From: a virus
DNA: 28,571 nucleotides
Virus record (IMG/VR): IMGVR_UViG_3300045988_100739
Coordinates: 1-28,571 of that record
Direction: 5' to 3' (one strand)
In this document: positions 1,295 to 28,571 of the stretch, one piece after another
Layout: the number at the start of each line of letters is the position of its first letter
How positions within the stretch are numbered: position 1 is the stretch's first letter
The notes under the pieces: model-generated
The model's input: the letters and a program-made list of their open reading frames with translations, nothing else
What the model was told of the DNA's origin: nothing
Database searches by the model: none
Translations under genes and position numbers: made by a program

Positions 1295-1804
1295 CTACTT
1301 GATGATGAGCGACTGCCGCGTGATTCGCTCTGCGCCCTTGATCGCGTCCGGCGTGCCGTCCTTCATCGCCTTGTCGATAGCAGCGCCGAGTTTCTTCTTG
1401 TCGATCTTCACGACCGTCTCGACCGTCTTGAACTCGTCAGGTACGAGCTTCTCGTCGGTTATCTCGGTGGTCGTGGACTTGCGGAAGCTCAGGCGTACCT
1501 TCGGCGTGTCGAGCTTCCTGTCGCCGTGCGCCTGCATCGAGAAGGCCAGGTATTCCTTCAGCTGCTCGACCCGGCGCTCCTTGGCCTTGCGGCGCTCGGT
1601 CAGCGCCTTCTCCTCTGCCTTGAATGCCGCGACCTCGGCGTTCAAGTCCTTGATGAACAGGCCGACGGCCTCCAACTTGGCCTCGCGGCTGGCCTCCAGT
1701 TCCTCGAGCTCGTCGCACGTGAAGACCTCGCCGGTCGACTCGTCCAACGCGAAACCGCTCTCGATGACCTGTGCGATCCGTCCGTCAATCTCGTAGAGGT
1801 GCAT
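1295..1804 (-). CDS. Siphovirus Gp157 family protein (PF05565), 169 aa.
   Basis: Coiled-coil N-terminal half. The matches are ERRKAKERRVEQLKEYL and VRLSFRKSTTTEITDEKLVPDEFKTVETVVKIDKKKL. AAGGAG RBS 7 nt upstream of ATG 1804. Confidence 0.65.
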   Translation of the reverse strand: MHLYEIDGRIAQVIESGFALDESTGEVFTCDELEELEASREAKLEAVGLFIKDLNAEVAAFKAEEKALTERRKAKERRVEQLKEYLAFSMQAHGDRKLDTPKVRLSFRKSTTTEITDEKLVPDEFKTVETVVKIDKKKLGAAIDKAMKDGTPDAIKGAERITRQSLIIK

Positions 1805-3447: not shown

Positions 3448-3476
3448 AAAGAAAAGGGGAGCGCGAAGCTCCCCAG
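3448..3476 (-). terminator. Intrinsic terminator T2 ending the replication/recombination operon (downstream of ssb).
   Basis: Minus strand GGGGAGCTTCGCGCTCCCC followed by TTTTCTTT. Confidence 0.6.
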
Positions 3477-3536: not shown

Positions 3537-3602
3537 GCAATACGACTAATGCAATACGACTAATGCAATACGACTAATTAGTCCATTAGTTAGTCCATTA
3601 GT
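3537..3602. repeat. Tandem direct repeats: 3 x 14 bp (gcaatacgactaat, 3537-3578) then 2 x 12 bp (tagtccattagt, 3579-3602). The junction forms the palindrome GACTAATTAGTC.
   Basis: Seen directly in the sequence. Relatively AT-rich, immediately 3' of the ssb stop (3603) and before T2. Confidence 0.8.
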
Positions 3603-3983
3603 TTAGAACGGGATGTCCTCGTCGATGTCCTCGGGAACGGGTGCGCTTGCCGCCTCGCGTCGGCTCATCAACTCGATGTCGTCCACGATCACCTCGATTT
3701 TTGAACGTTTCTGCCCGCCCCTCTCCCAGCTCATGTAGCGGAGCTTGCCGAGGATGCAGACCTTGGTCCCCTTGGTCAGCATTCCCGCCAGCTTCTCGGC
3801 GCGGGTGCCGAACATGGTGCAGTCCACGAAGTTCGGGTAGTCCTCCCATTCGCCCGTCTGCTGGTTCCTCCTGCGGTCGTTCACCGCCACGCCGAAGCCC
3901 AGAATGGCCGTGCCGCCCGTAGTGCAGCGCAGCTCGGAATCGCGCGTGAGGTTTCCCGAGATATTAACGACGTTGATGCTCAT
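3603..3983 (-). CDS. ssb: Single-stranded DNA-binding protein (SSB, OB-fold) with an acidic C-terminal DIPF tail.
   Basis: MSINVVNISGNLTRDSELRCTTGGTAILGFGVAVNDRR...GEWEDYPNFVDCTMFGTRAEKLAGMLTKGTKVCILGKLRYMSWE...DIDEDIPF. AGGAGCAG RBS. Confidence 0.85.
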   Translation of the reverse strand: MSINVVNISGNLTRDSELRCTTGGTAILGFGVAVNDRRRNQQTGEWEDYPNFVDCTMFGTRAEKLAGMLTKGTKVCILGKLRYMSWERGGQKRSKIEVIVDDIELMSRREAASAPVPEDIDEDIPF

Positions 3984-3992
3984 AATCTGCTC

Positions 3993-4148
3993 CTAAAGTG
4001 TCTTGATGGCAAGTGCCGCAATAAGTGTGTAGATGATGTACGACGCGACGCGGACCCCGACGGGCCAGCGCTCGGCATCGACCAATAGGTAGCCGGTGCC
4101 GAGCCAAGCCCAGACGAGAATCACGCCCCGCAGCGCCTCGGCGCTCAT
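3993..4148 (-). CDS. Small hydrophobic (2-TM) protein of 51 aa between the Sak and SSB genes.
   Basis: MSAEALRGVILVWAWLGTGYLLVDAERWPVGVRVASYIIYTLIAALAIKTL. Its ATG overlaps the upstream stop as ATGA. It is preferred over the Arg-rich alternative frame 3964..4170. Confidence 0.35.
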   Translation of the reverse strand: MSAEALRGVILVWAWLGTGYLLVDAERWPVGVRVASYIIYTLIAALAIKTL

Positions 4149-4948
4149 CGCTCACCCGTGAGGCTGTCAACAGCGTCGCGGTTCTCGGCGGTCTTCCTCT
4201 TGATCCAAGATTCCACGACTGCCTGCGCCGTGGTGATTACTTTCGACGGCGCGTCCTTCCACTGGGTGAAGCCGGCGGCCTTGAGCGTCTTGGTCTTCTC
4301 GAGCGCGTCGAGGATGTCGGCCACCTCCCTGCCGGTCAGGAACGAGAACTCGTTGCAGGCGCCTTGGAAGGCCTCGACCTCGGCATCGGTGGCAGGTGGC
4401 TCTTGGACGCTCGCCGGTGCCTCTTGGCGCTTCACCGGCTTGCGGTCGATGGCCCAACGGTACACGACCTTGCGCGTCTTCTCGTTGGTGATGGTGAGCG
4501 CAGTGATCCTGCCGTTTACGACCTCCATCGCATCGACCGCGAACGTGTCGTAGCACTTGCCGTTCTGGATGTTGCAGTCCTCGGCCTTAATCCAGATGAA
4601 CGGAGCCGTGTACAGCTCGCGACCGATTCCCCAGAGGAACCCGGCACGTTTGAGCGCGTCGCTGCTCTCGCCCTTTTCGCTCTCCATGTTGCTCTCGGTT
4701 CCGGCGGCCTGCTTGTCAATCCAGATGTGCTTGTCCACGTCGTAGACGCTCAGCGTGCAGTTGAGGACGCCCTTTACCTCCTCGTACTCGCAGCGCCAGT
4801 CCATCGGGCCGAAAGTCTCGTCGAGCAGCGCCATGTCCGTGCGGCTCGTCTTGTACAGAAGCAGGGAAAGACCCTTGCCGCTCTTGGATACCTGGCCGAT
4901 TCTGCACTCGACCTCATCCGGGTAGAGGCCTCTCACCAATCCGCTCAT
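4145..4948 (-). CDS. Rad52/Sak/Erf-type single-strand annealing protein, 267 aa.
   Basis: SDALKRAGFLWGIGRELY is the hallmark motif of Rad52-like phage annealases. Likely ATG at 4948 (ATGA overlap with the upstream stop). The track's 325-aa version is an N-terminal over-extension. Confidence 0.55.
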   Translation of the reverse strand: MSGLVRGLYPDEVECRIGQVSKSGKGLSLLLYKTSRTDMALLDETFGPMDWRCEYEEVKGVLNCTLSVYDVDKHIWIDKQAAGTESNMESEKGESSDALKRAGFLWGIGRELYTAPFIWIKAEDCNIQNGKCYDTFAVDAMEVVNGRITALTITNEKTRKVVYRWAIDRKPVKRQEAPASVQEPPATDAEVEAFQGACNEFSFLTGREVADILDALEKTKTLKAAGFTQWKDAPSKVITTAQAVVESWIKRKTAENRDAVDSLTGER

Positions 4949-5130
4949 CGTTGCACCTTTCCCAAGTAGTACGTCCACACCGGGGACCCGGTGGACTTCT
5001 CCATGTCCGCGACCGCGCTTGAAAGCTCCGCATACGTCGAGCACCTGACCGTCTTGCGATGAATGGCCTTCATCTTGCCGGAGCAGAGCATATACCGTCC
5101 TGCCCCGTGCCAGTTGACGCACTTAGTCAT
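4945..5130 (-). CDS. Small Cys-containing hypothetical protein, 61 aa.
   Basis: Intact ORF, translationally coupled to both neighbours. Confidence 0.35.
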   Translation of the reverse strand: MTKCVNWHGAGRYMLCSGKMKAIHRKTVRCSTYAELSSAVADMEKSTGSPVWTYYLGKVQR

Positions 5131-6314: not shown

Positions 6315-7187
6315 CTACGGCCTCGGGTTCCACGGGTACTTGGAGCGCGGGAACTGCCGCTCTGTTCCCCCGGCCGCGACCCACTCCTTGGTGAGCCTGT
6401 CGGCCTCGACGTATTCAGGGACCCCATTCTGGACGCACCAGTCGTAGTGGGCGCAACAAGAAGACGGGAACCCTCCCTTGCCCGTGGAGTTCATGTAGTC
6501 CTTGATGAGACGTTCGCGCGGTGACCTCTCCGCCGCACCGACGTATGCCTCCCCGACAGGGGCGGTGCAGGAGGCGTCGGACTTCACCGAGCCGGTCTGC
6601 TGGTCCTTCCTGATCCATTTCGAGATCGTGAGGCGGTAGTTCCTGTACAGCTTGCCGGACTGCTCGCAGTACTCGTCTACCTTGGTGATGTAGTCGCGCC
6701 AGAACCCGGGGAACTGCTCATCGAGTTTCGCCGCGTCATCATCCGACAGAAGCACGTGACCGAACTCGCCGAGCTTGTGCCTTCTATCTCTAGCATTATC
6801 ACTATTCTTATTACTAGTTATATCCCCTATATTATTGGGTGATGTTTCATCACCAGTTACTGGTGATGTTTCATCACCAGTCCGGTGATGTTTCATCACC
6901 AGTGATGTTTTATCACCGGTGATGTTTTTGCACACCCTGTAGGCGCAACCCTGACCCGTCCTGACCTTCTCGACGAGTCCCTTGTCCGTGAGTTTCTGGA
7001 GCACATTGATAGCGTTCCTGCGGGCGATTCCGCACCAGTCCGCGACGTACTGGGTGGAGCCGGTGAACCAGGACTCGCCGTCCTGCGAGAACCCGTAGAT
7101 GAGCGCGTATGCGACGAGTTCCGATCCCTTCAGGCCCAACTCCTCGACCATGAACGGCCTGAGAACGACATACGATTCCGTTTGCAT
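6315..7187 (-). CDS. Replication initiator / replisome organiser (lambda-O-like). It has an N-terminal winged-helix domain, a repeat-encoded linker and a C-terminal domain.
   Basis: The N-terminus ELGLKGSELVAYALIYGFSQDGESWFTGSTQYVADWCGIARRNAINVLQKLTDKGLVEK resembles phage replisome-organiser/DnaD-like DNA-binding domains. The linker TGDETSPVTGDETSP is encoded by DNA iterons. ATG 7187 with AAGGAG 6 nt upstream. Confidence 0.5.
   Translation of the reverse strand: MQTESYVVLRPFMVEELGLKGSELVAYALIYGFSQDGESWFTGSTQYVADWCGIARRNAINVLQKLTDKGLVEKVRTGQGCAYRVCKNITGDKTSLVMKHHRTGDETSPVTGDETSPNNIGDITSNKNSDNARDRRHKLGEFGHVLLSDDDAAKLDEQFPGFWRDYITKVDEYCEQSGKLYRNYRLTISKWIRKDQQTGSVKSDASCTAPVGEAYVGAAERSPRERLIKDYMNSTGKGGFPSSCCAHYDWCVQNGVPEYVEADRLTKEWVAAGGTERQFPRSKYPWNPRP
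6838..6929. repeat. Array of 4-5 palindromic iterons GGTGATGTTTCATCACC (starts 6838, 6862, 6884, 6902, 6918) inside the initiator gene, flanked at 6781-6840 by a strongly AT-rich tract. Putative origin of replication.
   Basis: Seen directly in the sequence. Each unit is a perfect 7-bp inverted repeat (GGTGATG/CATCACC) with a TTT spacer. The adjacent 60-bp AT-rich run is the lowest-GC patch in the genome. Confidence 0.65.
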
Positions 7188-7198
7188 GACCACTCCTT

Positions 7199-7245
7199 AA
7201 AACAACAAACCCGCCGGGTAGATTGCGCCTACCTGACGGGTTTGT
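7199..7245 (-). terminator. Intrinsic terminator-like hairpin plus T-run between the Hjc gene and the replication gene. It lies in the leader just upstream of the initiator RBS.
   Basis: Minus strand ACAAACCCGTCAGGTAGGCGCAATCTACCCGGCGGGTTTGTTGTTTT, then AAGGAGtggtcATG. Confidence 0.5.
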
Positions 7246-7329
7246 CACATCACCCTCCGCCTACCTAAACGGAGCTGTATTACAGACCTGCTGGGAAACA
7301 GGCGTGATAGCTATGTGCGGGCGCAATCC

Positions 7330-7338
7330 GCGTGTATC
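7330..7338 (-). promoter_or_regulatory. Extended -10 element TGATATAAT (minus strand), candidate promoter for the replication/recombination operon. An 8-bp perfect inverted repeat GGGCCGCG/CGCGGCCC (7358-7389) lies just upstream.
   Basis: TGnTATAAT matches the extended -10 consensus. No good -35 is present. The same 9-mer recurs at 25904-25912. Confidence 0.35.
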
Positions 7339-7415
7339 AATTATATCACACGGAGGCCCGTAGGGCTGGGCCGCGTGTGGTATGGGAGACTCGCGGCCCG
7401 TCTGTAAGTATAGCA

Positions 7416-10297: not shown

Positions 10298-11503
10298 TTA
10301 TACGGTGCCGTCGAGCTGCTTGCGGTAGATTGTGCGGACGAAGTACCGGATCGCGTCCATGGCGTGGTCGTGCTCCTTGATGACCTTGGTCTCGGCGGTC
10401 GAGGAGTCCCAGACGTACTGCCCGAACTCCTCGACCGCCTCCTTGCACCGCTCGCAGACCTTGAGCCGGTCTAGCTGGATGAGGTTGTCCACGTTCTGGA
10501 TACCGGGCACGACCTCGTTGTCTGCCTGTATGACAGTGAACAGGCCGTCGGCGCGCATCTCCTCGATGAATGACGAGGCCGACGGGTCTACGACGATCGA
10601 CTCGACGTCGTAGCGCGAGATTTTGGCCTTCAGCTCCTTGTAGAGCATGGCGTCGGTCTTGCGGTAGCCCTTCTCGCGCGAGTCGAAGCTGTACTCGTCG
10701 AAGGCCACGACCGCGCCGCCCCTGACCGTCCAGAGAAGCGCAGCGAACGGGTTGGTGATGCCGTAGTCGATGCTCACCCACACCGGCGCGTGCTCGGGAA
10801 TCTCGAACAGCGGAATGTCCGGGATCACGGCCTGCTCGAGCGCGGTCTGGTAGACGAGGCCCTCGGCCTGCGTCCAAAGCCCCCGGATGTAGCGGTCATA
10901 GAAGACGCCCGTGTACTCTCGGCAGAGCTGCTCGACGTAGCTCTTCGGCAGATACGGGTTGTCGAAGATTGTGTAGTGCTGTCGGTAGATGTCGAGGTCC
11001 TTGCGGTCGATGAACTGCTTTAGCCAATGGCGAGGCCCTTCCGGGTTCAAGCCCGCGTGGCACTCCGAATACTCGAATGACAGGCGGGACTTGAGCATCT
11101 CGAAGACCTCCGGGTTGATTCCCGCCGCCTCGTCGATGTAGCAGAACTTCACAGCGGAGCCTTGGAGCTTACGTTTCTGCGTGGCCTTCTCCGCTCCAAG
11201 GCAGTAGCACCGCTGACCGAACAGGTTCACGGTGTTGTCGGGGCCTCCGATCGTCCCGACCACGCCCTCGCCGAACTGCTCGCGCATGGGAACCAGCACG
11301 TTGCGCTCGATGTTTCCGAGAGACACGCCCATTAGGAGGTTGATTCCGTCCAACCCCACACCGTGCAGTATCCGGTCGGGAATCGTGAAGTTGTTCGCCA
11401 GCCACGACTTGCCGGATCGCACCGCGCCCTCGGCGAAGTTCCACCGGTGATGGGCCTCGCGCACGTACTCCTTTTGCTTGTCCGTGAGGCTAAACGACGG
11501 CAC
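10298..11503 (-). CDS. terL: Terminase large subunit (ATPase plus nuclease).
   Basis: Walker A-like AEGAVRSGKSW. C-terminal nuclease motif VIKEHDHAMDAIRYF. Apparent GTG start overlapping the terS end. Confidence 0.85.
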   Translation of the reverse strand: MPSFSLTDKQKEYVREAHHRWNFAEGAVRSGKSWLANNFTIPDRILHGVGLDGINLLMGVSLGNIERNVLVPMREQFGEGVVGTIGGPDNTVNLFGQRCYCLGAEKATQKRKLQGSAVKFCYIDEAAGINPEVFEMLKSRLSFEYSECHAGLNPEGPRHWLKQFIDRKDLDIYRQHYTIFDNPYLPKSYVEQLCREYTGVFYDRYIRGLWTQAEGLVYQTALEQAVIPDIPLFEIPEHAPVWVSIDYGITNPFAALLWTVRGGAVVAFDEYSFDSREKGYRKTDAMLYKELKAKISRYDVESIVVDPSASSFIEEMRADGLFTVIQADNEVVPGIQNVDNLIQLDRLKVCERCKEAVEEFGQYVWDSSTAETKVIKEHDHAMDAIRYFVRTIYRKQLDGTV

Positions 11504-11906
11504 TGTCGCGCACCGCCTCTGTCATGTCCCTGATGGCCTTCAAAAGCTCCTCGTTGCCGTCCTCCGGCTTGCGCTGGCAGCGCCCGAATTCCTGCGGGTA
11601 TGCTCGCTCCAGATACCAGGCTGACGCCTGCCACTGCCCGTCGTTCGCGGCCCTCGTGATGTTCTGCAAATGGAAGGCCTTGCGCATCGCCTCGGCCCTG
11701 CGGTACTCGTGGGCGAACTTCACGTATTCCTCGTCGTCGTCTCGGCCCCGGATTCCGTCCTCGCCCCATGAAAGCCAATTGAAAAGCGTGGACGGATGGA
11801 TGCCGACCGCCTTCGCGACGTCCGTCGTCGAGAGGCCCGCGCGTACGAGCTTGATGATCTCGCGCCGGTTCTCTGCCGTGAACTTGGTATTCTTCTCCCG
11901 TGCCAT
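11490..11906 (-). CDS. terS: Terminase small subunit (HTH-containing).
   Basis: The N-terminal HTH IIKLVRAGLSTTDVAKAVGIHPSTLFNWL is typical of TerS. It lies directly upstream of terL. Confidence 0.65.
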   Translation of the reverse strand: MAREKNTKFTAENRREIIKLVRAGLSTTDVAKAVGIHPSTLFNWLSWGEDGIRGRDDDEEYVKFAHEYRRAEAMRKAFHLQNITRAANDGQWQASAWYLERAYPQEFGRCQRKPEDGNEELLKAIRDMTEAVRDSAVV

Positions 11907-16015: not shown

Positions 16016-16467
16016 TACGATTTTTTTGCCTCCACCGCCTCGAAGGAGGGGTCGGGGAACGCGAACTCTGCGGTATACACCGGCTCGCTCGTCAGCTTCT
16101 TACGTTCGACCTTGAAGTTCTTCAGCCAGCAGTACTGCCACATCTGCTGACCGAACGCCACCACCGTGCATTTGAGCCTGCCGGCGGCGAGAACCTTCGC
16201 GACGTCACCCGGCTCGCGCTTGACCGGCTCGAACGTGATGGTGCGCGTCTTCATGGGCTTGCGCCGACCGATGTAGTACGAGCCGTCAGAGAACGCATAG
16301 TCCTGCGTGATAAGGTTGTAGTTCTCGCTCATAAAGTCGTCGAGTCCACCGGCCTGAAGGACGTAGCCAGCATCGTCGGCGACCTCGCCCAACGCCTTGA
16401 GGCCGCATATCTGCACGACGCCCCCGTCCGCGTTCTCGAACCTCAGCCCCATATCGTTAAACGCCAT
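16015..16467 (-). CDS. N-terminal half of a Dit-like distal tail protein, 150 aa, ending ...EAVEAKKS.
   Basis: Immediately downstream of the TMP. Its last codons are GCA AAA AAA TCG TAG, carrying an A7 tract at 16021-16027. Confidence 0.5.
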   Translation of the reverse strand: MAFNDMGLRFENADGGVVQICGLKALGEVADDAGYVLQAGGLDDFMSENYNLITQDYAFSDGSYYIGRRKPMKTRTITFEPVKREPGDVAKVLAAGRLKCTVVAFGQQMWQYCWLKNFKVERKKLTSEPVYTAEFAFPDPSFEAVEAKKS

Positions 16468-18550
16468 AGTCTGCCCCCACTCCGAAGGTGTTGTACTCGT
16501 GAACCGTCCTAGCCATGTCCGCAGGGTTGGCTACCGGCTGGTTGAAGTTGATGGTCTGGTTGACGGTCTGACCGCCACCGGCCCCCTGCTGGCTGACGAA
16601 CTGCGGCTGGAAGCTCCTCACGACGTTCGGGGAGAACGACGTCGAAAGCTCGCCGCCGTAGCCCTTGAGGTCGTCGTTGAAGTCTCCGATGCTCTTTTTA
16701 GTGTCCTCGAATCCATCGACGAGCCTCATGTTGAAGCCCTTCATGATGAGCGTACCGGCGGGCTGCAGGAGCTTCAGGTCGTAGCTGAGCGGTCCCTTGT
16801 GGCGCGCGATCCATCCCGCGATACTGCCGACGAACGACGTGACCCTGTTCCAGAAGGAGACGAGGCCGTTGTACAGGCCGATCATGATGTTTCGGCCTGC
16901 GTTGTACAGCAGTCTGCCGCCGTTTCCGATGGCCCTGACGATCTTGCCGGGAATATTCCCGACGAACGACGTGATGCCGCCCTCCTTGGATGCGATGCCG
17001 CTGAGGAACTTGCCGAACGCCTCCGCGCCCGATGCGAGCAGCGACGGGCCGAGCGTGACCAGCTTGCCGAGGATGTCGCCGACGAGTCCGGCCACGCTCA
17101 GGAGAATCTGCGGCAGCGCCTGACCGATTGCTCCGACGAGCTGTAGGAACAGCTCCGCGCCGCGCGACAGCATCTCCGGGCCGTGGTCGATGATGTACTG
17201 GAGCAGCTGCGCGATTCCCTGGCCGAGTGCCGTGAGAATCTGCGGCAGCGCCTGAATCAATCCGGTGACCATGTTCACGAAGAACGTAAGCGCCGTGTTG
17301 AGCAGCTGCGGGCCGTACATGATTATCAGGTTGAAGATGCCGGTGATGATGGTCGGCAGGTTCTGGATGATCATCATACCGAGCTGCCCCAACGCATCGA
17401 GCAGGAACGTGGCGAGGTTTACTATCATCCCGACGATTGCCGGCCCCTGCTCCGTGAGGAACGTGCCGACCGACTGGAAGAACGTCGGCAGGTTCGTCGA
17501 GATCGACTGCAGGACGGACTCGAACAGCTGCGGGATCGACATTCCCGTAGTCTCCTTGATCTTGTCGAAGACCTGCGGGATGGCCTGCTGGATAGCCTGA
17601 CCCACCTTCCCCATGAGGGATGGCAGCGTCGTTACTACCGTAGCCACGATCTGCGCGATTCTCGGCATGACGTTCTCGCCCACCGCCGTGACCGCCGTGA
17701 GCAGGTTCTCCGTGAGAGCGCCCATGTCTTGGTCTGGGTCGGCGAGGCCCTCGAGCCAGTTCTTCCAAGCGGCCTTGGTGGCGTTTACGGAACCCTCGAC
17801 GGTCTTCAGGGCCTCGTTCATCGATGTGCCCGCGATGCCCATATGGTTCTGCATGACGTCGATGGCGTTCACGATGTTGTCGAAGCTCATGCTGTTCGCA
17901 TCGACCGTGATGCCGAGGTCTTTCTGGATGTCCGTCATTGAGGCGGCGTCCTTGATTAGGCGCTGCATCTCCTGTTGGGTGCCGCCGTATCCGAGCCTCA
18001 GGTTGTCCAGCATCGTGTAGTTCTGCTTCGCGAAGCCCTGGTAGGCGTTCTGGATGTCCGTGATGTTCGTGCCGAACGTGTTGGCGTTGTCGGACATGTC
18101 CATGATGGCGCGGTTTGCGTATCCCGCGGCCTTCTGCGTGTCTCCTCCGAGCGAGCCGATGAGCGATGCCGAGAACGACGTGACCTGCTCCATGTACTCG
18201 TTGGACGATATCTGCGCGGTCCGCCATGCGTTCGCCGCACATCCCTGCACCGTCTGCCACGAGTCTCCGAACAGCTTCTGGATGCCGCCGATGTTCTGCT
18301 GGTAGCTCGAGAACTCCTCCAGCGCGCCCTTTGCGATTATGCCCGTGGCTGTCGTGCCCGCAGTCCCGATGGCGGCGAGCGCCTTGGTCGATGCCGAGAC
18401 GATGCCGGAAGCGAAGCCGCCGACCGCGCCTTTAGCCCTCTTCATGGTGGACTCGGCAGAACCAGCCGCCGACTGCGCCGCCTTCGTCGCCTGATTTACG
18501 GCCTTGTCGCCGTTGACCTCTAGGTCTACCTCGATAGTGCCGTCAGCCAT
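16457..18550 (-). CDS. Tail tape measure protein, 697 aa.
   Basis: Large Gly/Ala/Leu-rich protein with repeated amphipathic/hydrophobic segments. AAGGAGGTG RBS. Follows the G/T chaperone pair. Confidence 0.8.
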   Translation of the reverse strand: MADGTIEVDLEVNGDKAVNQATKAAQSAAGSAESTMKRAKGAVGGFASGIVSASTKALAAIGTAGTTATGIIAKGALEEFSSYQQNIGGIQKLFGDSWQTVQGCAANAWRTAQISSNEYMEQVTSFSASLIGSLGGDTQKAAGYANRAIMDMSDNANTFGTNITDIQNAYQGFAKQNYTMLDNLRLGYGGTQQEMQRLIKDAASMTDIQKDLGITVDANSMSFDNIVNAIDVMQNHMGIAGTSMNEALKTVEGSVNATKAAWKNWLEGLADPDQDMGALTENLLTAVTAVGENVMPRIAQIVATVVTTLPSLMGKVGQAIQQAIPQVFDKIKETTGMSIPQLFESVLQSISTNLPTFFQSVGTFLTEQGPAIVGMIVNLATFLLDALGQLGMMIIQNLPTIITGIFNLIIMYGPQLLNTALTFFVNMVTGLIQALPQILTALGQGIAQLLQYIIDHGPEMLSRGAELFLQLVGAIGQALPQILLSVAGLVGDILGKLVTLGPSLLASGAEAFGKFLSGIASKEGGITSFVGNIPGKIVRAIGNGGRLLYNAGRNIMIGLYNGLVSFWNRVTSFVGSIAGWIARHKGPLSYDLKLLQPAGTLIMKGFNMRLVDGFEDTKKSIGDFNDDLKGYGGELSTSFSPNVVRSFQPQFVSQQGAGGGQTVNQTINFNQPVANPADMARTVHEYNTFGVGADYGV

Positions 18551-24246: not shown

Positions 24247-25116
24247 CTAGAAAGACACCTTGGCGTTGTAGACGCAGTCGGAGCGCAGAACCTTGGCACC
24301 GTAGACGTGGAGGCCCTTGACGGCGTCCTTGAAGGACTTCTCGGGACGGTATGCCTCAGTATTCAGAATCTGCTCGGCGTAGGTGCCGGACTGGTCGCAA
24401 CCGGCGATGACGTCGTAGACGGCCTGGTCGCCCTTGGAACCGCCAACATCCTCATGCGGTGCGTTGTTGGACACGTGAATCTCGAAGCCCGCGGACTTGT
24501 AGACGGTGCCCTCGGTGAGGCGCTCGTTGGAGTCGTTGGTTGCGACGGCGACGAATCGGGAGTCCTTGAGCATGAAGCCCTCGAATTCGGGCGGGACGAC
24601 GCAGATGCGGCCCGTGGTCGGGCAGTTATTGCGGTCGAGCGCGACCTTGAGGTCTACGAGCAGGTTGTAGGCGTCCTCGGGCTTTGCGTCCGTGATGCTC
24701 TTCGGCGCGTCCTTGGTGCCGATGGTGCCGCCGGTGCCGGTGACCAAGAGGGCGGCGAGGTACTGGTCGGTCACATCGCCGAAAGCGTAACCGGTCTGGG
24801 AAGAGGCGGACTCCAAGAGGTTAATCTTGGACTGGGCCGCGTCCACATCGTCGACGGCGATGTTGAAGTAATCAGCCTGGTCGATGGACAGCGTGGCGTC
24901 AGTCACTGTCACGTCGTCGGGCGCGGCGATGTCGGTGCCCTTGGTGTACTTCTTGACGGTGGGAGCGCCGACGAGGCCGATCTTGACGGTGTCGCCAGCG
25001 TCTCGAATCTCGCCCTCGTAATCGCGGTTGAAAAACTTGGTATAGACCAGCTGCTTCTCGAGCGCGGCGAGGATGCGGGCAGACCAGATTGTCGGGATGA
25101 ACTTGTCGGTAGACAT
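24247..25116 (-). CDS. Major capsid protein, 289 aa.
   Basis: The N-terminus MSTDKFIPTIWSARILAALEKQLVYTKFFNRDYEGEI is the characteristic start of a widespread phage major capsid family. It follows the scaffold gene and is followed by a terminator. Confidence 0.65.
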   Translation of the reverse strand: MSTDKFIPTIWSARILAALEKQLVYTKFFNRDYEGEIRDAGDTVKIGLVGAPTVKKYTKGTDIAAPDDVTVTDATLSIDQADYFNIAVDDVDAAQSKINLLESASSQTGYAFGDVTDQYLAALLVTGTGGTIGTKDAPKSITDAKPEDAYNLLVDLKVALDRNNCPTTGRICVVPPEFEGFMLKDSRFVAVATNDSNERLTEGTVYKSAGFEIHVSNNAPHEDVGGSKGDQAVYDVIAGCDQSGTYAEQILNTEAYRPEKSFKDAVKGLHVYGAKVLRSDCVYNAKVSF

Positions 25117-27419: not shown

Positions 27420-28406
27420 CTATAGCCCGTCTACTTCCTCGATGCGCTCTCCAAGCCAGCGCATGACGGGAACCGCCATCGAGTTGCCGATTGCCTTGTA
27501 CCTCGGACCGTCAGGACATTCCTCGGCAGGCTTGCCCTTCCACGATATTCTAGTGTGGTTGTCCGGGAAGCCCTGTAAGCGCTCGCACTCAAGTGGAGTA
27601 AGGCGGCGAAGGGGCGGCGTGGATGCATAGTCGCTCGTACAAACCTCGGTGCCGTACTGGGACAGAGCCGTGTTCGGCAACGACAAGACGGCAGGCGCAT
27701 GCCAGTCCGCGGTGAGCGTGTTTGCTTGCTCTGCCGCATATCCTATTGTGTTTGCTCGGGGCGCGGCGTTGTACTTGAAGCCTGCGCACGCAGCGCTGCG
27801 TCCAGCTCGGTTGGCAAGCTCCTTCCTCTTTTCACAGCTCGATTGAGGATTCCCTGACAGGCAGTCGGGCTCAAAGAGAACCTCTGCGGGGGATTCGGCT
27901 CCAAGATGTCCGACAAGAAACAGACGGCGGCGTCGCTGGGCCACTCCGAAGAACTGCGCGTCCAGAACTCGCCATGCGAGACAATACCCGAGTTCATCCA
28001 TCTCTCTGAGCAGTTGTCCGAAAGCTTCCCCATTCTCGCTTGTGAGCGCTCCCGGTACGTTCTCCCACAAAAACCAGCGAGGACGAAGTTCCTGAACGCA
28101 TCGAATGTACTCGAACATGAGGCCGGATGCTCCTTTGAGCCCTTCTCGCTTTCCCGCGACTGAGAATGACTGGCAGGGACTTCCTCCAACAACAAGGTCA
28201 ACTGCTCCATGAATCTCATTCTTCCAATCTACCTTTTTCCAATCTACCTTTGTGATGTCCCCAAGGTTGGGGACGTCTGGCCACCTCTCTGCAAGAACTG
28301 CGCACGGGAACGGCTCGATTTCCGAGAATGCCATCGGCTCCCAACGGAGTGGCTCCCAAGCGAGCGTCGCCGCCTCGACACCGGAAAAGATGCTTACGTA
28401 CCTCAT
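27420..28406 (-). CDS. dcm: DNA (cytosine-5)-methyltransferase, about 328 aa.
   Basis: Motif I FSGVEAATLA. Motif IV GGSPCQSFSVAG. ENV motif LWENVPG. C-terminal motif X QGFPDNHT...AIGNSMAVPV. ATG 28406 overlaps the upstream HTH stop (ATGA). The track's N-terminal extension to 28535 actually belongs to the upstream HTH gene in another frame. Confidence 0.9.
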   Translation of the reverse strand: MRYVSIFSGVEAATLAWEPLRWEPMAFSEIEPFPCAVLAERWPDVPNLGDITKVDWKKVDWKNEIHGAVDLVVGGSPCQSFSVAGKREGLKGASGLMFEYIRCVQELRPRWFLWENVPGALTSENGEAFGQLLREMDELGYCLAWRVLDAQFFGVAQRRRRLFLVGHLGAESPAEVLFEPDCLSGNPQSSCEKRKELANRAGRSAACAGFKYNAAPRANTIGYAAEQANTLTADWHAPAVLSLPNTALSQYGTEVCTSDYASTPPLRRLTPLECERLQGFPDNHTRISWKGKPAEECPDGPRYKAIGNSMAVPVMRWLGERIEEVDGL

Positions 28407-28571
28407 TCGTCCGCCTTCACAACCAGCTCGTTTACATCCATCTTCATGGCGTTCGCCATGTTGGACAGCACGCGCAGCGGCAGTTTGTAATGACCGTTGA
28501 GGTACCTGCTGAACGTCACCGGAGACGTGCCGCACATCTTGGCGAGCTGCTTCCGGCTCATGTCGTGCTCG
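28403..28571 (-). CDS. C-terminal (HTH_XRE) part of the wrapped Lar-like/HTH gene. See feature 1..123; 28517-28571 duplicates 1-55.
   Basis: Translation ...MSRKQLAKMCGTSPVTFSRYLNGHYKLPLRVLSNMANAMKMDVNELVVKADE*. The stop is TGA at 28405..28403. Confidence 0.5.
   Translation of the reverse strand, partial: EHDMSRKQLAKMCGTSPVTFSRYLNGHYKLPLRVLSNMANAMKMDVNELVVKADE
28517..28571. repeat. Exact 55-nt duplicate of positions 1-55: a circular-contig closure overlap. True genome length 28,516 bp.
   Basis: Identical strings at both window ends. An ORF reads through the junction without interruption. Confidence 0.9.

Follow-up and report, generated by a model that had tools for sequence, protein, structure and literature searches.

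A probable replication origin of palindromic iterons and an AT-rich tract inside the initiator gene of a small human-gut phage

The IMG/VR virus record IMGVR_UViG_3300045988_100739 was analysed over positions 1 to 28,571, and this whole stretch is referred to here as the window. As an exact 55-bp direct repeat joins the end of the window to its start, it is a circular assembly representing a complete phage genome of ~28.5 kb. Within its replication initiator gene, the part encoding the inter-domain linker contains a cluster of 17-bp palindromic repeats (iterons) followed by an AT-rich tract. Judging from the sequence, we consider this segment, at 6781-6936, to be very probably the vegetative (theta-type) replication origin of the phage. 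A preliminary description of the window had likewise proposed a lambda-like origin composed of initiator-binding repeats and an AT tract inside the initiator gene. This proposal is supported by the position of the iterons beside the least stable duplex of the genome, by selection acting at the DNA level, by repeats that change along with the DNA-binding domain of the initiator and by recurrence of the arrangement across a large protein family.

The array comprises three perfect palindromes, one copy with two mismatches and one half-site (Table 1), where four to five perfect copies had been described. The units start 24, 22, 17 and 17 bases apart. The location given earlier, 6781-6930, was right, but iteron 5 runs six bases past its end. 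Allowing up to three mismatches, we found seven strand-matches (corresponding to four sites) against 0.06 expected, and none of 100 shuffles reached seven. The array can therefore not be attributed to chance. It is also the highest-scoring tandem repeat of the window (Tandem Repeats Finder score 109), and the genome has only one such iteron cluster. Among relatives, GGTGA-N7-TCACC is the sole invariant part of the iteron. The earlier characterisation of the repeats as inverted and not direct draws a false contrast, since the units are iterated in tandem and each has internal dyad symmetry, as do the 19-bp iterons of lambda (PMC7466680). Searching viral contigs for the exact iteron, with 'origin-only' hijacker elements in mind, yielded multi-copy matches only in the phage's own relatives; single matches were judged compatible with chance on a rough, uncomputed estimate.

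The AT-rich tract adjoining iteron 1 is the proposed DNA-unwinding element. While the genome has a mean GC content of 60%, the 40 bp at 6795-6834 reach only 23%, which is the genome minimum. No 50-bp duplex in the genome is less stable than 6785-6834, at -53.5 kcal/mol versus a mean of -76.9 kcal/mol (standard deviation 4.3), or 5.4 standard deviations below the mean. An easily melted tract thus lies directly beside the repeats, in agreement with the AT-rich tract in a genome of about 60% GC that had been pointed out before.

We used an AlphaFold2 model of the initiator, built with a 54-sequence alignment, to place these elements relative to the encoded protein. Residues 92-132 are predicted to be disordered (predicted local distance difference test score, pLDDT, below 50). 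They correspond to nucleotides 6792-6914 and coincide with iterons 1-4 and the AT tract. Since this disordered segment separates two confidently folded domains (residues 1-88 and 136-198, the latter followed by a weaker helical tail), the model confirms that the repeats and the AT tract lie in the coding region for an inter-domain linker of the initiator gene.

Sequence encoding a disordered linker would otherwise be expected to drift rapidly. From an alignment of 10 close relatives, however, we calculated a third-codon-position diversity of 0.096 for the origin and 0.064 for the AT tract, against 0.195-0.217 in three flanking coding segments, and the minimum of this measure in a sliding window coincides with the origin. 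At codon positions 1 and 2, diversity in the origin is no lower than elsewhere. Substitutions inside the repeats adjoin the palindrome centre, on the side of the left arm, and alter the encoded residues (E to K, DE to EK), whereas the arms GGTGA and TCACC are fixed. Moreover, translation of one and the same DNA unit uses all three frames (Table 1), the third through the half-site of iteron 5, which on the coding strand is CATCACC and is read as NIT, so the array is not a peptide repeat. Taken together, these observations indicate that selection on the origin stretch acts at the DNA and not the peptide level. Iteron copy number differs among relatives, resulting in proteins of 278-297 residues; iteron number and protein length vary likewise between Stx phages and lambda (PMC7466680).

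Variable copy number and a disordered product could also be explained if the repeats were a by-product of slippage in a low-complexity linker, encoding a peptide such as TGDETSP and having no function at the DNA level. Slippage does not account for the reading in three frames, for peptide-altering changes between fixed arms, for the halving of third-position diversity or for the fact that unrelated N-terminal domains are accompanied by unrelated repeats at the same place (see below). We regard this explanation as extremely unlikely. It is also very unlikely that the palindromes work as hairpin or cruciform structures of the mRNA or DNA, and not as binding sites in duplex DNA, whether to pause translation, to stabilise RNA or as a single-strand initiation or packaging signal. 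Each unit can indeed form a 7-bp stem, and a terminator scan picks up 6884-6900. Yet two inner stem positions change from TG to AA in GEK-type relatives while the other arm remains uncompensated, and the distant relatives L036 and L038 have non-palindromic direct repeats at the same place. The small terminase gene, for its part, is located elsewhere in the genome.

The repeats also vary with the DNA-binding domain. In one group of relatives (L004-L008, L023-L026; L004 and L009 are the two ends of one contig), the C-terminal half of the initiator is 81-88% identical to that of the window, whereas the N-terminal winged helix is unrelated and has a weak PadR match. These relatives have different repeats, CCATTTGCC, GGCAAATGG or TCAAATGG, at the same linker position, and the AT tract is kept. 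A CATCACC half-site remains from the last window-type iteron, inside which the downstream junction of the swap falls. Low-GC relatives (L011-L017) have an N-terminal domain that is 44% identical and a 17-bp palindrome, GTATCA-AAAAT-TGATAC, of the same 6-5-6 geometry with different arms; two frames are used to translate it, and an AT tract with CAATAATAAAG comes after it. Still more distant relatives share only the central domain of the initiator (L028-L040 and the isolated Enterococcus phage vB_ElaS_B1578), and each has its own N-terminal domain together with its own repeats. Most of this set have an AT-rich or purine-rich tract after the repeats, just upstream of the conserved domain. On a smaller scale, three of four to all four copies in the tabulated proteins of one lineage read TGGTGAAAAAACATCACC, a concerted TG-to-AA change, and the substitution A55T, located directly before the predicted recognition helix as its N-cap, is present in 14/14 proteins of this lineage and 0/39 others. 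The repeats thus co-vary with the DNA-binding domain in the domain swap, in the 44%-identical domain and in the A55T lineage. In lambdoid phages, the N-terminal domain and the iterons are likewise exchanged together.

Some swapped relatives preserve traces of the exchange. At L005 1779-3546, and also in L006, L007 and L024, a truncated remnant of a window-type initiator gene lies upstream (codons 1-64, 95-98% identical). Next come an open reading frame (ORF) for a 135-residue HNH_3 endonuclease (L005 2203-2610) and, behind it, the new initiator gene, which has repeats of its own. In L008 and L026 the replacement is clean, with neither remnant nor HNH gene. From these sequences, it looks as if an HNH-associated cassette consisting of a DNA-binding domain and its iterons was inserted into the old initiator gene.

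A second set of repeats, at 3537-3603, occupies the intergenic region directly after ssb. It consists of three copies of the 14-mer GCAATACGACTAAT and 2.2 copies of the 12-mer TTAGTCCATTAG; both units contain the core GACTAAT, in opposite orientations. Replication might start here and not in the initiator gene, in which case the in-gene repeats would be operator or handcuffing sites that control expression or copy number. In favour of this, the region of the 3537-3603 arrays ranks second in the genome for low duplex stability, SPP1 has two origins (PMC6316719), and iterons often also serve as control sites. The 3537-3602 repeats have, however, no motif in common with the initiator sites. They are the same in L003 and L005, which have either N-terminal domain, degenerate in L001 and absent from the post-ssb intergenic region of L008. 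Their neighbourhood, which includes a terminator (3456-3474) and, in relatives, a promoter-like TTGCAA-N17-TAGAAT, suits a transcriptional role. The in-gene repeats, on the other hand, have an adjoining AT tract in most distant relatives, which a pure operator would not need. We therefore consider it unlikely that the in-gene repeats are control sites only, with replication starting elsewhere. As a second origin of the same initiator, 3537-3602 was rejected because it has no motif in common with the iterons and does not follow the DNA-binding domain. The 3537-3603 stretch resembles a regulatory region or a site targeted by another protein.

Several observations nonetheless count against an origin at 6781-6936. 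As an AT-rich intergenic array, 3537-3602 could be another origin. No DnaA boxes are present in the genome, and sites for other host factors were not found either. The cumulative GC skew, which had been suggested as a check, has no extremum at 6.85 kb. Nearly everywhere in the window the skew is negative, its cumulative curve declining almost steadily, and it follows the coding strand; as all identified genes are on one strand, it cannot locate an origin and the test is uninformative here. The association of A55T with the altered iterons probably represents a single evolutionary event at sites less than 150 nt apart, and is suggestive at most. Finally, the central domain of the initiator has no Pfam or NCBIfam model and no PDB sequence or fold match, so that helicase recruitment by this domain is an assumption.

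Table 1. Positions of the proposed origin, the initiator and its domains, and other genes identified in the window.
Feature	Position	Strand	Description or basis
AT-rich tract, proposed DNA-unwinding element	6781..6837	.	lowest GC, least stable duplex; encodes second part of disordered linker
Iteron 1	6838..6854	.	perfect GGTGATGTTTCATCACC; adjoins AT tract; read as GDETSP
Iteron 2	6862..6878	.	perfect GGTGATGTTTCATCACC; read as GDETSP
Iteron 3	6884..6900	.	perfect GGTGATGTTTCATCACC; other frame, read as LVMKHH
Iteron 4	6901..6917	.	AGTGATGTTTTATCACC, two mismatches; read as GDKTSL
Iteron 5	6918..6936	.	half/degenerate copy GGTGATGTTTTTGCACACC; one good half-site GGTGATG (+ strand), other arm degenerate
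Replication initiator gene, 290 aa	6315..7187	-	Pfam HTH_36, PHROG families, nr names
N-terminal winged-helix DNA-binding domain, residues 1-88	6924..7187	-	AlphaFold2 pLDDT 80-96; predicted recognition helix 56-68
Conserved central domain, residues 136-200	6588..6782	-	beta-hairpin and three helices; AlphaFold2 pLDDT 80-91
Cys/His-containing C-terminal tail, residues 201-290	6318..6587	-	lineage-specific; low-confidence helical model
Conserved leader upstream of initiator	7188..7415	-	highly conserved among relatives
Hjc-type Holliday-junction resolvase, 115 aa	7416..7763	-	Pfam Hjc 25.3 bits (cut-off 21.1); final gene preceding initiator leader
Rad52/Erf-like single-strand annealing protein	4145..5122	-	Pfam Rad52_Rad22 27.1 bits (cut-off 20.3); phrog_1097 1e-22
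SSB	3603..3983	-	Pfam SSB 1.1e-24
Gam-like protein	1295-1804	-	PHROG/Pfam scans
Small terminase (TerS)	11490-11906	-	PHROG/Pfam scans
Tape measure	16457-18550	-	PHROG/Pfam scans
Major capsid protein	24247-25116	-	PHROG/Pfam scans

The protein whose gene contains the iterons belongs to the HTH_36/DnaD-like winged-helix initiators and by sequence falls into neither the lambda O nor the RepA_N family. Its match to Pfam HTH_36 (PF13730) covers residues 18-72 and is borderline, at 25.2 bits against a gathering threshold of 25.0, but the assignment agrees with the precomputed annotation of many close relatives. Five PHROG replication-initiation families (270, 428, 8540, 678 and 186) match with E-values of 1e-6 to 8e-8, and close relatives in nr are named 'Replication initiator protein A (RepA) N-terminus'. 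The Pfam DnaD_N match is weak (E 0.0028) and below the cut-off. Pfam RepA_N (PF06970) has no match in the initiator, and the similarity to this family is limited to the fold. Similarly, there is no match to the Pfam lambda O family (Phage_rep_O), and the PHROG 'replication initiation O-like' families give only weak matches (~1e-6) over the helix-turn-helix. In a Foldseek search of the N-terminal domain against the PDB, the best matches were three plasmid initiators of the RepA_N type, 4pt7, 4pql and 5kbj (E 4.6e-4 to 1.5e-3), along with the N-domain of DnaD (2v79), with MarR-type winged helices ranking next. Translation probably starts at the ATG at 7187, which follows an AAGGAG ribosome-binding site, and not at a GTG at 7193. 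In several relatives (P0062, P0121-P0124), the initiator is called as two proteins, an N-terminal half of 161 residues and a C-terminal half of 136-146 residues.

For the C-terminal half, nothing meaningful was found in Pfam (E<=1), in NCBIfam, in a profile search of PDB sequences or by Foldseek with a stand-alone model, which was poor (pLDDT 59), and a second, word-indexed protein search returned few relatives. A DnaB_2 (DDBH2-type) C-terminal domain could accordingly not be recognised by Pfam, PDB or fold matching with this poor model. The C-terminal tail is covered by only four cluster representatives, including the query's own cluster.

The leader between the Hjc gene and the initiator gene contains an extended -10-like sequence, TGATATAAT, at ~7341-7349, and a consensus promoter scan of 7188-7415 found nothing. 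In a strong hairpin at 7205-7245, relatives show a compensatory A-T to C-G change; after the hairpin comes a U-run that immediately precedes the ribosome-binding site. The leader RNA fold has a z-score of -3.1, and neither the leader nor any other part of the window matched a known RNA family in Rfam. Given these features, the leader is a possible attenuator of initiator expression. The loop of its hairpin, GGCGCAATC, could pair with an upstream GGATTGCGCC. A lone GGTGATG half-site beside the hairpin (7248-7254) was considered as an autoregulatory operator and rejected, as most window-type relatives do not have it.

The 65-residue central domain has 1333 cluster representatives at E<=0.001 and is not matched by any model in Pfam or NCBIfam. 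It is characterised by the motif HKxGEFGHVLLSD...VDEYCEQSGKxYxNYxLTIxxW and is fused to at least six different N-terminal families, DUF6291, HTH_36, Phage_rep_org_N, Lin1244_N, DnaD_N and RepA_N. In the 71 sampled central-domain proteins from which these pairings were taken, Phage_rep_org_N occurred in nine and RepA_N in one. At 11 of the 15 tested central-domain loci, the 200 nt upstream of the domain were the most repeat-dense segment of the locus, equalled by no control segment. The domain is a candidate for a new family definition, and we propose that it is a partner-recruiting module, the assumed partner being a helicase. Going further, it is conceivable, though we hold it to be fairly unlikely, that the domain defines a very large unrecognised class of self-contained 'initiator plus origin' cassettes. 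In such a class, specificity modules consisting of DNA-binding domain and iterons would be swapped as units (in this lineage apparently by HNH-associated insertion), and the host helicase would be recruited by the constant domain with no phage loader involved, even in an actinobacterial host that, to our knowledge, lacks the DnaD/DnaB/DnaI machinery.

PHROG, Pfam and NCBIfam scans of essentially all ORFs identified no helicase, loader, primase or polymerase gene. They did identify a Rad52-like annealing protein, an SSB (single-stranded-DNA-binding) protein and an Hjc resolvase, as the preliminary description had stated. The initiator gene is followed by four small ORFs and the genes for the annealing protein, SSB and a Gam-like protein. 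The Hjc product also matched NCBIfam Hol_resolv_Hjc (E 1.8e-5), under the model cut-off. We infer the following course of replication. The winged-helix N-terminal domain of the initiator would bind the four to five dyad-symmetric iterons, probably as dimers, and the nucleoprotein complex, together with transcription and supercoiling, could then open the adjacent AT-rich tract of ~55 bp. As no phage helicase or loader gene was found, we propose that the host replicative helicase or primosome is recruited by the initiator through its conserved central and C-terminal part. A later shift from theta replication to concatemers may be aided by the Rad52-like annealing protein, SSB, the Gam-like protein and the Hjc resolvase, which would support the formation and resolution of concatemers before packaging, as in models for SPP1 and 80alpha. 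The combination of genes had earlier been taken to hint at initiator-primed replication, for which we found no support. A theta start with a host helicase recruited by the initiator, followed by recombination-assisted concatemers, is the better-supported scheme, though itself putative, and has been proposed for SPP1 (PMC6316719) and 80alpha (PMC5499656).

The arrangement closely resembles that of lambda, whose origin is found in the central part of O and consists of imperfect 19-bp inverted-repeat iterons followed by an AT tract (PMC7466680). On the coding strand, both systems have the order of N-terminal DNA-binding domain, four to six dyad iterons, AT tract and C-terminal partner-binding domain, and in both the iteron number varies among relatives and alters protein length (PMC7466680). 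Unlike in lambda, the iterons of the window are 17 bp and not 19 bp long, no P-like helicase loader gene was found, the protein has no Pfam lambda O match beyond the weak PHROG 'O-like' hits (~1e-6), and the probable host is an actinobacterium.

Plasmids of the RepA_N type provide a second parallel. The Rep boxes of pSK41 are central in rep, the protein functions without the linker that the origin encodes, and the C-terminal domain contacts the host replication protein DnaG (PMC5703833). The best structural matches of the window's N-terminal domain, listed above, link it to this family, which includes pSK41 Rep and pAD1 RepA. In the pPR9 chimera, an N-terminal domain of pfam13730 (HTH_36) with its origin replaces the RepA_N domain and its origin on a constant C-terminal domain (PMC5703833). 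This is a direct precedent for the kind of swap of N-terminal domain plus origin seen among the relatives of the window. Unlike these plasmid proteins, the initiator has no Pfam RepA_N match and its C-terminal half no detectable similarity to the pSK41 C-terminal domain or DnaD; moreover, it comes from a phage rather than a plasmid, and there is no evident antisense-RNA control.

Replisome organizers of Firmicutes phages (SPP1 G38P, lactococcal Phage_rep_org_N proteins and 80alpha ORF20) also have repeats and an AT-rich unwinding element inside the organizer gene; SPP1 oriL lies in gene 38 (PMC6316719) and the 80alpha origin inside ORF20 (PMC5499656). Genes for an annealing protein and SSB are neighbours here as well, and the Phage_rep_org_N N-terminus is among those paired with the window's central domain (9/71, see above). 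SPP1 and 80alpha differ in having their own helicase loader beside the organizer, and SPP1 also a helicase, and no such module was found here. SPP1 furthermore has direct repeats and two origins, unlike the palindromic units and single iteron cluster of the window.

The PHROG and Pfam scans describe a small siphovirus-like phage with every identified gene on the minus strand. Structural and lysis genes besides those in Table 1 encode scaffold, head-tail, tail and minor head proteins, endolysin, the large terminase subunit (TerL) and portal; DNA methyltransferase and HNH endonuclease genes were also identified. The gene order is unusual, as the whole early/replication region separates TerS-TerL-portal-minor head-Hjc from scaffold-capsid-tail-lysis, on one strand throughout. 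No integrase or repressor was recognised in the window. A 79-residue ORF matches just the C-terminal part of DNA methyltransferase families and is present in addition to the full 371-residue methyltransferase (regions 1045-1284 and 27420-28535); it may be a gene fragment or part of a split gene. Within the methyltransferase gene region there is also a perfect tandem repeat of 2 x 15 bp, TTCCAATCTACCTTT, at 28222-28251, where the sequence is locally AT-rich.

No isolated phage is related to the window at the DNA level. Dozens of initiators with 85-100% identity were found in human-gut metagenomes. Two copies of the initiator were binned into metagenome-assembled genomes of Collinsella. This is a weak hint, consistent with the GC content of 60%, that the probable host is Collinsella, an actinobacterium.

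An origin inside the initiator gene is already known from lambda, SPP1 and staphylococcal plasmids, and the layout described here adds nothing to this concept. The greater interest lies in the large unannotated central-domain family and in the cassette-like exchange of DNA-binding domain plus iterons. For an abundant uncultured group of human-gut phages, the analysis gives a precise candidate origin together with a proposed specificity of its initiator. As Collinsella has few genetic tools, the 150-bp origin and the initiator gene could serve as the starting point for a shuttle replicon. The presence of repeats and an AT tract just upstream of the HKxGEFxHVLLxD...VDEYCEQSGKxYKNY domain could be used for automatic origin annotation in metagenomic phages. 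If the class of 'initiator plus origin' cassettes were real, it would yield a predictive rule for replication specificity and for origins across thousands of phages that have not been cultured, and would suggest a new route of helicase recruitment, including in an actinobacterial host.

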